From: Podarcis bocagei | Lineage: Eukaryota | Length of the DNA stretch: 64,000 nucleotides | Direction: 5' to 3' (one strand) | Assembly (NCBI GenBank): GCA_964188305.1 | Contig: OZ076899.1 | Part shown: positions 24,352-26,413 of the stretch, piece after piece | How the letters are laid out: each line of letters begins with the position of its first letter | Numbering within the stretch: the first letter of the stretch is position 1 | Position numbers and translations under genes: made by a program | The notes under the pieces: generated by a model | Databases searched by the model: none | Told to the model about the DNA's origin: nothing | The model's input: the letters and a program-made list of their open reading frames with translations, nothing else

Positions 24352-26118
24352 TTAGTACACTTCATTGCCTAAGCGTCTACACTGTGCAACATAAATTCCT
24401 CTTGTAACCCCTGTGGTGGGCCGTGGTCGGTACCACCATGCAGTGCATTGGGAAATCAAAGAGGGTATGCATTGAATGCAACAACACACCATAATGAAGC
24501 CAGCAATACATGCAATTACAATCAATAAAACTTTTCTTAACCATACTCCATTGGGTAACCAAGAAGACAACCACTCCCATGGATCAAAACCTTCAGGTGG
24601 ATTCAAAGGATTATGGGCTATCATTTGTTCCATATGATCAATAGTAGCAGAAATATTGGTTGATTGATCAGTTATATACATGCAGCAATGAGAATAAATT
24701 AAGGCACAAATTCCACCTTTAGAAGCAAGGATCACATCTAAAGCATAATGATGTTGAAGAACTACATTTCTTATTTCTGATATTTCTTTGTTAATCATTT
24801 TTAAAGCCAAAATGGTGGAATTGAACAAATTTTCTGTCCAGTTTGCCAATTTATGCAAATCACGGTAATTCATGGCTGCACCTAAAGAAGGCAGAAGAGA
24901 CCTAGAAATAGTTGTCCCTGTATATTGAGAAATAGGTGATTGTACTTCCCTTCTGTTGCGCAAACGGACCGCTGGGAGCTTATCTATTTTATACACCAAG
25001 GGTACTACTATTCCTAACGTGCAGGTACCAGAAAAGGCAGAGGGGAGTTCTTTGTAGGCCCTTGTGCCACATAATAACCATAAATCAGATTGAAGCAAAC
25101 ATGTAGTTCTGCTGCTCTTTCTCATCCAGTCGAACCAAACATAAAAATCTCTACACGCGGCTTGTTGTTCATAGGTCATGTAGGTCGTGACATTATTAAT
25201 TAAGACCTTTGGCCTACCACTCATGGTTGTAACATTAAGAAAACAAGAAGATCCATTAATGTACTCATATGTCCAATTACAATATGGATAGTGACCTAAA
25301 AATTTTTTGCTATTATGATTAAAATGAAAACAATACGGAGCTAATTCTACAAGCGATAGAGATACAGGAGGTAAACTTATGCGATTGTCTTTCATATTAT
25401 TGCTAATCTTATATGAAGCATTTATAGGAATACCATGTAATAAAATGCCAGATCTTTTTGATTGAGGAGGGATATGCATACACATCCAACAATCAGAAAG
25501 ATTAAGCATAGAAGCAAAATGATTAATGTCTCTAACGTAAGTATTGTTAGTCCAAATCTGATGATAAGGTTCAGGCCTCCTGGCCTTCTGCAAAAGAGCA
25601 GCACGACGAAAGCGGTGTTTTACAAAGTTCCCGGAGAGGCTCCACCCGTGTGAAGTGGAATTGTGGGGCCACTCAGGACGATGCCATATTGGTTGCTCGG
25701 GGGGGCAATAAGGGTGAGAATGGTGAATTATTCCAATAGCTGTTTCCGAGCAACCTGCGTGATATTTCGTGGCTCGATTATTGACATGTAAAAACCACAA
25801 TCCAGGAGAAGCCACACAGCCATTTCTGCAGATACAGGAGCCCATTTGCTGTAAATAGGCCTCATGTACTGCTCCGTGCACTGCTGAGCCAAGAATCCAA
25901 ACCCAACGAAACGTGGTGACACCGATGGGATGGTCGCTATTGGGGGGCAAAACCCAAGCGATGCCGGTCTGACGAGGGCATCCTTCAAAGCCAGGTTCAT
26001 TTCCCAAACAAGAGGCAGCAAAACTGTAATGATGTTTGGTGGTTGAAGTGGCTTCCCAGGGAAAAGGGGGGCCAATGCAGTAGGGATGAAGATGGCCTTT
26101 CAACGTGCCAGGAAACAC
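24352..26118 (-). CDS. env: ERV Env, gamma-type (SU CWMC, furin RNRR, ISD, CX6CC, TM anchor); start codon unresolved
   Basis: NLSDCWMC (25480-25491); RNRR (24949-24960); ISD-like LQHHYALDVILASKGGIC; CALIYSHCC; anchor VLLIVIACIAGFIMVCCCI. The track start is GTG, the frame is open from 26247 and the first ATG is at 25845. Confidence 0.9.
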   Translation of the reverse strand: MFPGTLKGHLHPYCIGPPFPWEATSTTKHHYSFAASCLGNEPGFEGCPRQTGIAWVLPPNSDHPIGVTTFRWVWILGSAVHGAVHEAYLQQMGSCICRNGCVASPGLWFLHVNNRATKYHAGCSETAIGIIHHSHPYCPPEQPIWHRPEWPHNSTSHGWSLSGNFVKHRFRRAALLQKARRPEPYHQIWTNNTYVRDINHFASMLNLSDCWMCMHIPPQSKRSGILLHGIPINASYKISNNMKDNRISLPPVSLSLVELAPYCFHFNHNSKKFLGHYPYCNWTYEYINGSSCFLNVTTMSGRPKVLINNVTTYMTYEQQAACRDFYVWFDWMRKSSRTTCLLQSDLWLLCGTRAYKELPSAFSGTCTLGIVVPLVYKIDKLPAVRLRNRREVQSPISQYTGTTISRSLLPSLGAAMNYRDLHKLANWTENLFNSTILALKMINKEISEIRNVVLQHHYALDVILASKGGICALIYSHCCMYITDQSTNISATIDHMEQMIAHNPLNPPEGFDPWEWLSSWLPNGVWLRKVLLIVIACIAGFIMVCCCIQCIPSLISQCTAWWYRPRPTTGVTRGIYVAQCRRLGNEVY

Positions 26119-26139
26119 TGGAACAGCTGTGGAAGGTGA

Positions 26140-26413
26140 CTTTATCCATTGCAGAGGTGACTGTGATCTTGTCTGCTGGATCCTTATGTCCTTTAAGGGC
26201 AGAAAATAGTGGAGACAAAGTGGAGGTGGGCAGGTCCAAATAACTCTTTATCCAATTCAGCTGTCCAAGGATTTGTTGTAAATCCACCAATCTAAGATAA
26301 CCAGGAAACTGTAGTTGAGGCGTAACTGGAATGGCTGCAGATGCTGTCAGCTTGTGTCCCAGGTACGTAATAGGTAAGGTCCGCTGGATTTTTTCTTTAG
26401 CCACTGTCAATCC
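26140..26413 (-). pseudogene. pol: ERV pol remnant (end of RT palm plus RT thumb)
   Basis: GLTVAKEKIQ...PITYLG...LVDLQQILGQLNWIKSYLDL...LSPLFSALKG fits a class II RT thumb. No protease, YxDD, RNase H or recognisable integrase. Lower boundary is approximate. Confidence 0.88.

Follow-up and report, generated by a model that had tools for sequence, protein, structure and literature searches.

The window analysed here, a 64,000-nt stretch of Podarcis bocagei DNA, contains a long retroviral envelope frame that raises a simple question. Why is the recognisable surface subunit (SU) preceded by a Cys/His-rich module ending in a furin-type motif, in a frame that has neither a clear start nor a signal peptide? 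The first-pass annotation proposed a three-part Env shedding a small accessory domain, with a start either supplied by splicing or lost in a deletion of pol. The frame is indeed open for 631 codons on the minus strand, from 26247 to the stop at 24352. Its first 33 codons, however, are DNA of the reverse transcriptase (RT) thumb and not env. RFRR and RNRR are read in the same frame, WTNNTY...NLSDCWMC comes after RFRR, and the first in-frame AUG, at 25845, is not followed by a signal peptide. Residues 41-215 contain 8 Cys, 16 His and 8 Trp. The module is real; its length, initially put at about 170 residues, becomes 182 Env residues up to RFRR in the window. The hydrophobic stretch that had been pointed out, FRWVWILGSAV, is weak (best 11-residue mean of 1.33). 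The suggested internal repeats did not survive scrutiny. The two halves of the window extension resemble each other with p=0.049 relative to shuffles, a likeness driven by HxHPYC alone. In an undeleted copy, p is 0.46 and the first motif reads HLQPYR, without the cysteine.

The provirus in the window and its undeleted relatives

The env frame belongs to a 4.6-kb provirus located on the minus strand, from 28598 to 23969 (Table 1). The 5' and 3' LTRs, 338 nt each, show 0 differences, and the element lies between copies of a 6-bp target duplication, TCTGGT. The insertion is therefore recent. The primer-binding site resembles what we take to be the 3' end of elongator tRNA-Met. Between this site and gag, the 5' leader contains three copies of a 75-nt repeat (27957-28224). 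An Ala/Pro-rich insertion, whose length differs between copies, is found in the N-terminal domain of the capsid (26845-26990). Elsewhere in the window, a tandem array with a 119-nt period (60935-61867) has no relation to the provirus.

Table 1 Features of the env-bearing provirus, in window coordinates
Feature	Position	Strand	Evidence
5' LTR, 338 nt, TG...CA	28261..28598	-	identity to 3' LTR, TCTGGT duplication
Primer-binding site	28244..28258	-	sequence adjoining 5' LTR
gag (MA, CA)	26397..27821	-	Pfam Gag_p10, Gag_p24, Gag_p24_C
Deletion junction 1, capsid end joined to RT end	26410..26413	-	blastn against undeleted copies
RT remnant (thumb)	26149..26409	-	Pfam RVT_thumb, E 1.7e-13
Deletion junction 2	26145..26148	-	TGGA microhomology, on both sides
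SU1 remnant, env codons 57-238, syncytin-Mab1-like	25603..26148	-	homology to Mab Env SUs
Mab1-homologous SU1 core, env codons 84-205, 7 common cysteines	25702..26067	-	BLASTP E 5e-20
First furin-type site, RFRR	25603..25614	-	RXXR in 18/19 copies
SU2, gamma-type, ending in RNRR (24960-24949)	24949..25602	-	CWMC as CXXC at 25491-25480
TM, gamma-type	24352..24948	-	Pfam TLV_coat, E 2e-10
3' LTR, polypurine tract directly upstream	23969..24306	-	sequence

Pfam finds Gag_p10, Gag_p24, the RT thumb and TLV_coat in the provirus. Deletion 1 removed the nucleocapsid, the protease and most of RT; owing to it, gag ends before the zinc knuckles, which the undeleted copy carries as a zf-CCHC domain. Deletion 2 removed RNase H, integrase, the env AUG, the signal peptide and env codons 1-56. 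It joins RT DNA to env codon 57, so that the Env sequence starts at 26148. The last 99 nt of the RT remnant, read out of frame, provide the 33 leading codons (26247-26149) of the open frame. Carrying these deletions, the window copy is non-autonomous and has no means of producing a secreted Env; its copying probably took place in trans.

L023, an undeleted copy in this genome, served as the numbering reference. Its gag, pro and pol lie in separate frames and contain class II domains. The class II (beta-like) features found are Gag_p10/Gag_p24, RVT_thumb, IN_DBD_C, the separate gag/pro/pol frames and the 6-bp duplication. The best solved relative of the L023 RT is 7SR6 (E 3.5e-119), which we assume to be the HERV-K RT. 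The closest named proteins come from Podarcis muralis and P. lilfordi. The family appears to lack the dUTPase within pro that is given as a feature of the genus Betaretrovirus proper (PMC8278194), no match being detected in the L023 pro frame at E 0.01.

The extension has 146 matches in its own genome (150 of 161 candidates scored). Among the best 20 loci, env is present from codon 1 in seven and begins at codon 57, 59 or 61 in 13. In undeleted copies, the integrase frame runs past the env AUG before it ends. A leader of 21 residues comes next, with basic, hydrophobic and small-residue parts (judged by eye); it resembles a signal peptide, and 217 residues separate it from the end of RFRR. The sister copies that keep AUG and leader show directly that the start was lost in the pol deletion, one of the two options of the first-pass annotation. 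The missing start and signal peptide of the window copy are ordinary deletion damage.

The three junctions (env codons 57, 59 and 61; 26145-26148 in the window, L002, L007, L010-L020) lead, in those inspected, to the same RT-thumb region. They point to a hotspot of recombination at which short words are common to both sides and the env start is removed. Start loss of this kind may also account for five 500-residue P. muralis models that begin at the internal Met and have no leader.

Transcription was assessed in three raw RNA runs and one contig set; among the indexed holders of the sequence, none is recorded as RNA. Reads from the three runs reveal sense transcripts of the family; 11 reads of one run extend beyond 26148 into the env start of undeleted copies. 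Reads at least 99% alike amount to 24 of 323, 36 of 478 and 5 of 140. With such low depth and so few of these reads, the RNA says little about the window locus itself. The sense transcription of the family, together with an AG preceded by a pyrimidine stretch near 26124, would be compatible with the other option, in which splicing into 26127, 26118 or about 26024 supplies start and leader and a new kind of small accessory protein is shed. However, a spliced start is not needed, as sister copies carry AUG and leader in the very stretch deleted here, and three different junctions remove the env start in 13 of the 20 loci. In addition, no read joint is listed at any of the three places in the three runs (at low depth) and, as described below, the module belongs to a known kind of protein. 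We regard this option as very improbable.

Identity of the module upstream of RFRR

An exhaustive search with the module, hereafter SU1, among 1.84 billion representative proteins returned five entries. These are two Podarcis fragments, Mab-Env2, an unnamed SU-only fragment (P0007) and a repetitive protein (P0008). SU1 matches the SU of Mabuya Mab-Env2 (P0006, ATY46612.1) with an E value of 2.1e-11 and P0007 with an E value of 4.3e-06. P0008 (E 2.7e-05) was dropped as a likely chance match. A word-indexed search with SU1 gave a Podarcis copy alone, and use of the Mab-Env2 SU as a query added syncytin-Mab1 (P0023). Among longer proteins, a profile search retrieved nothing but the two Mab proteins and the Podarcis cluster.

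Env residues 84-205 align with residues 72-239 of syncytin-Mab1 (pairwise BLASTP E 5e-20, 30% over 169 columns). Within this block, both Mab proteins have a cysteine opposite each of C103, C113, C161, C163, C167, C189 and C204. Seven of the 12 cysteines of the Mab1 SU are thus aligned in SU1, and not the full set: SU1 lacks a stretch of Mab1, about 45 residues long, that holds four cysteines, and Mab1 C42 has no clear partner. As read from the sequences of the Mab proteins, the matched region is the SU, which follows the leader and ends in RXXR before the TM. The matched block ends 14 residues before this RXXR in Mab1 and 34 residues before the end of RFRR in SU1. These alignments identify SU1 as a predicted retroviral surface subunit homologous to the SU of Mab-Env1/2. 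Rather than the small accessory domain first envisaged, the module corresponds to the greater part of a second SU, one of syncytin-Mab1 type. The first 60 mature residues of SU1 show no detectable likeness to the N-terminus of Mab1 (p 0.44-0.80), so that SU1 may not be one whole inherited SU.

Pfam did not assign the extension to any family at E up to 1, and no solved chain matched SU1 at E up to 10. AlphaFold2 models had a mean pLDDT of 30.5 for SU1 (5 rows) and 32.7 for syncytin-Mab1 (7 rows). ESM Atlas features, taken as leads only, associated SU1 with TLV_coat and avian gp85 clusters (0.88-0.91, 129-153 common features). The top three rows for the Mab1 SU, likewise leads only, pointed to clusters of these kinds with 0.93 and 172-189 common features.

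Other identities were considered and rejected. The segment is not integrase read in another frame. SU1 as an internal duplicate of SU2 received an hhalign probability of 1%, and a short local likeness between the two (p=0.0045) was not borne out by profiles. A relation to the alpha-like SUs of the same genome received 3.7%. An overlapping 123-codon frame (26099-25728) was discarded as a gene: of the 22 copies that cover it, 13 interrupt it, it shows no sign of purifying selection, and 18% of randomisations produce such a frame.

Two furin-type sites and the origin of the tandem arrangement

Env residues 239-657 form a complete gamma-type Env. The CXXC motif (CWMC) is located at residues 276-279, 38 residues after RFRR. 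This spacing agrees with the range reported for SUs that lack an N-terminal receptor-binding domain (RBD; bioRxiv 2024.03.17.585361). RNRR (453-456) is followed by an N-terminal fusion peptide, and no Cys is found between 432 and 537. An ISD-like segment precedes CX6CC (537-545) in the TM, which also has a membrane anchor and a tail. TLV_coat scores above the cut-off, and the best solved relative of the TM is syncytin-2 (E 1e-11). Judged from its sequence, the undeleted Env is organised as signal peptide-SU1-RFRR-SU2-RNRR-TM, with two SUs of different origin in tandem.

Homologues of SU2-TM are also found in the same genome without SU1. In L056 and L064, which belong to a gammaretrovirus-type gag-pol family (Gag_p30, MLVIN_C), SU2-TM is directly behind a hydrophobic leader. 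RFRR maps near the end of this leader, and an LLxK motif is located 2 residues after RFRR and 13 residues after the leader of L056/L064. A sister beta-like family (L057-L062, pol 67% alike) is mostly found on contig C19, with many near-identical env frames. Its Env has a leader of the same kind, followed by only about 35 residues and then RTIR ahead of SU2; L057, a decayed member, has no RXXR. SU2 and TM of the C19 family are 55% and 83% alike to the gamma family, versus 47% and 70% to the window family. Conversely, the SU-TM of L056/L064 is closest to the beta-like C19 family (TM 83%). The two families appear to be products of another exchange of env, in which class I and class II viruses were the partners. 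Contig C19 abounds in ERV env matches; as a guess, it could be a W chromosome. A separate family (L065-L069) has an alpharetrovirus-like Env with a Cys-flanked internal fusion peptide and CX6CC. Its SU has no detectable relation to SU1.

Conservation was analysed with 30 loci, picked among the best matches and among related families. Six of the seven SU1 cysteines that align with the Mab proteins do not vary in any of 23 copies; the seventh, C204, is invariant in 13 of 13. C132, a Gly in the window, is kept in 21 of 23 copies and C46 in 9 of 15. At the first site, the 19 covering copies comprise 12 with RX[KR]R, six with minimal RXXR (RFHR, RLHR, RLCR) and one with RLRH. Thus, the Cys pattern and RXXR are kept among relatives. 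RX[KR]R arises somewhere in 4.9% of SU1 shuffles, so that RFRR as a motif alone is weak evidence; its weight rests on position and conservation. The position is that at which a Mab1-type Env has its SU/TM site.

The first site might be cut inefficiently, leaving SU1 joined to SU2 as the RBD of MLV is to its C-domain. This would fit the seven copies with minimal RXXR or RLRH, the strict furin motif being K/R-X-K/R-R (PMC9967133), and the 33-residue Pro/Trp-rich linker, which we infer to resemble a proline-rich hinge. On the other hand, RX[KR]R is intact, with basic residues upstream, in all 10 covering copies of the window's close group and also in the P. muralis full-length models. Moreover, the site of syncytin-Mab1 itself appears to be minimal (RNAR, as assigned here). 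We consider inefficient cutting of the first site improbable.

dN/dS for SU1 codons 96-205 is 0.39-0.57 in six pairs, with p<0.05 in four of the six (pairs not independent). The values are 0.12-0.27 for SU2 and 0.15-0.36 for TM when the near-identical pair L001-L022 is left out. For shared variants, SU1 gives 0.56, versus 0.28 for SU2 and 0.30 for TM. SU1 thus appears to be under moderate purifying selection, weaker than that on SU2 and TM. SU1 also has a smaller synonymous distance than SU2, perhaps owing to recombination among copies; the alternative cause of an overlapping frame was tested and rejected.

SU1 is dispensable, since five loci (L036-L038, L074, L075) lost about 130 SU1 codons in frame and kept the leader and RXXR. 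Their left break lies inside the Mab1-homologous block, which indicates deletion from the long form. The env frames of these loci are open over 529-532 codons. Only 13 of the 146 own-genome matches reach the end of RFRR. In L031-L035 and L040, an insert takes the place of the RFRR linker and of the first part of SU2 with its CXXC (equivalent to window 25431-25706). This insert (L033:2740-3145) is about 410 nt long, looks non-coding and contains a T run; it has 311 own-genome candidates, of which the 40 scored are 88-100% alike. In L032 the leader is intact, and a 316-codon frame consisting of leader, SU1 core and a foreign tail might give a secreted SU1-only protein.

We propose as the probable origin of the tandem arrangement that a beta-like lizard virus took in a gamma-type env behind its old SU, and that furin would cut both sites and release SU1. 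The ancestor would have had the order leader-SU1-furin site-old TM. A template switch would then have replaced the old TM by SU2-TM, and AUG, signal peptide and furin site would have been retained. Cleavage at RFRR would give SU2 an N-terminus close to that of its single-SU relatives. SU2 would bond to the TM via CXXC/CX6CC and do the entry work. Because SU1 has no TM partner of its own, it would be shed or loosely bound, partly constrained and dispensable. The three-part polyprotein with a second furin site imagined in the first-pass annotation is in this respect consistent with motifs, conservation and homology, cleavage being predicted. Less probably, the two SUs would have been kept together because both are of use to the virus, and the soluble Mab1-like SU could still bind its receptor, presumably MPZL1 as for syncytin-Mab1. 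It would then act as a second attachment factor or, once secreted, as an interfering or decoy protein, with fusion driven by the gamma-type SU-TM.

No Env combining a Mab1-like SU with a Mab1-like TM was found in the genome (90 of 1332 candidates scored, and 150 of 151 in a second search), so that the proposed parent has not been seen. More than one direction and number of transfers would fit, the C19 SU2-TM being closer to the gamma family and the trees being unrooted. Alternatively, a short-form ancestor (signal peptide, 35-residue leader, RXXR, SU2, TM) could have gained, later and in one lineage, most of a Mab1-like SU between leader and site, as an extra RBD like those described for other gamma-type Envs. 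Such a short form exists in L058-L062 and its leader is common to both forms (p<0.0005 versus shuffles). The absence of detectable Mab1 likeness in the leader also agrees with an insertion, and Env lineages are documented to gain RBDs from one another and to lose them (bioRxiv 2024.03.17.585361). However, an insertion leaves the RXXR before SU2 of the short form unexplained, whereas an old SU/TM site explains it. Furthermore, erosion of SU1 with leader and site kept is seen directly in the five loci described above. We consider an insertion rather unlikely, and retain the capture of SU2-TM behind an old SU.

Comparison with known envelopes

Envelope swapping by class II viruses is well documented from tree conflicts. 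MPMV/type D viruses, python PyERV and songbird TgERV-F resemble the window family in that they associate beta-like gag-pro-pol with a gamma-type env (PMC3758190, PMC10536682). Class II env capture is described as env replacement, and the portions of this literature considered here mention no retained earlier SU or second furin site; nor do they state how a new env is fitted to the start of the old gene. The window family illustrates a possible route: a new SU-TM is attached behind the old furin site, which is retained together with AUG and signal peptide. Long, partly deleted and short forms are found side by side in one genome, which makes the steps datable and testable.

The foamy virus Env (LP-SU-TM) is alike in having two furin sites, here motifs only, and three products, an organisation called unique among retroviruses (PMC7828637). 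The foamy LP is a membrane-anchored type II leader of 120-130 residues, with a cytoplasmic N-terminus that binds Gag. In contrast, the window family has a short 21-residue leader of the cleavable type, and SU1, an SU homologue, has no membrane anchor and no strong hydrophobic segment. Should the released SU1 have the less probable function envisaged above, this Env would be the first, apart from those of foamy viruses, to be tripartite, and a snapshot of class II viruses swapping envelopes without losing the translation start.

The dual-RBD Envs of EnvR group 4 (Hötzel, bioRxiv 2024.03.17.585361) also have an extra N-terminal domain from another Env lineage before the CXXC domain. Their extra domains are Ig-like or three-strand RBDs within one SU. 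Podarcis group 1 of that study has CX9CC, versus CX6CC in the window family, and the terms "furin", "tandem" and "Mab1" are absent from its main text. A literature search, with most subscription journals outside its range, found no description of a tandem-SU Env or of the ERV family of the window.

The Mabuya proteins syncytin-Mab1 and Mab-Env2 are homologous to SU1, have no CXXC and bear RXXR at the end of the SU. In the Mab Envs, the SU precedes a TM of its own, in which an internal hydrophobic segment is flanked by Cys and CX7C is present. In the window family, SU1 is followed by a second SU and a CX6CC TM that is only about 30% alike to the Mab TM. The Mab-type arrangement is called avian gamma-type, though the Mab TM has CX7C and not CX6CC (PMC3758190). 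The window family is a multi-copy provirus, whereas syncytin-Mab1 is a co-opted single gene. In our searches, SU1 is the only match to the syncytin-Mab1 SU outside Mabuya, bar one unnamed fragment, and it helps to mark the conserved core of that SU. If SU1 does act as a functional second SU, it would be a viral relative of the SU of a lizard syncytin in an egg-laying lineage.
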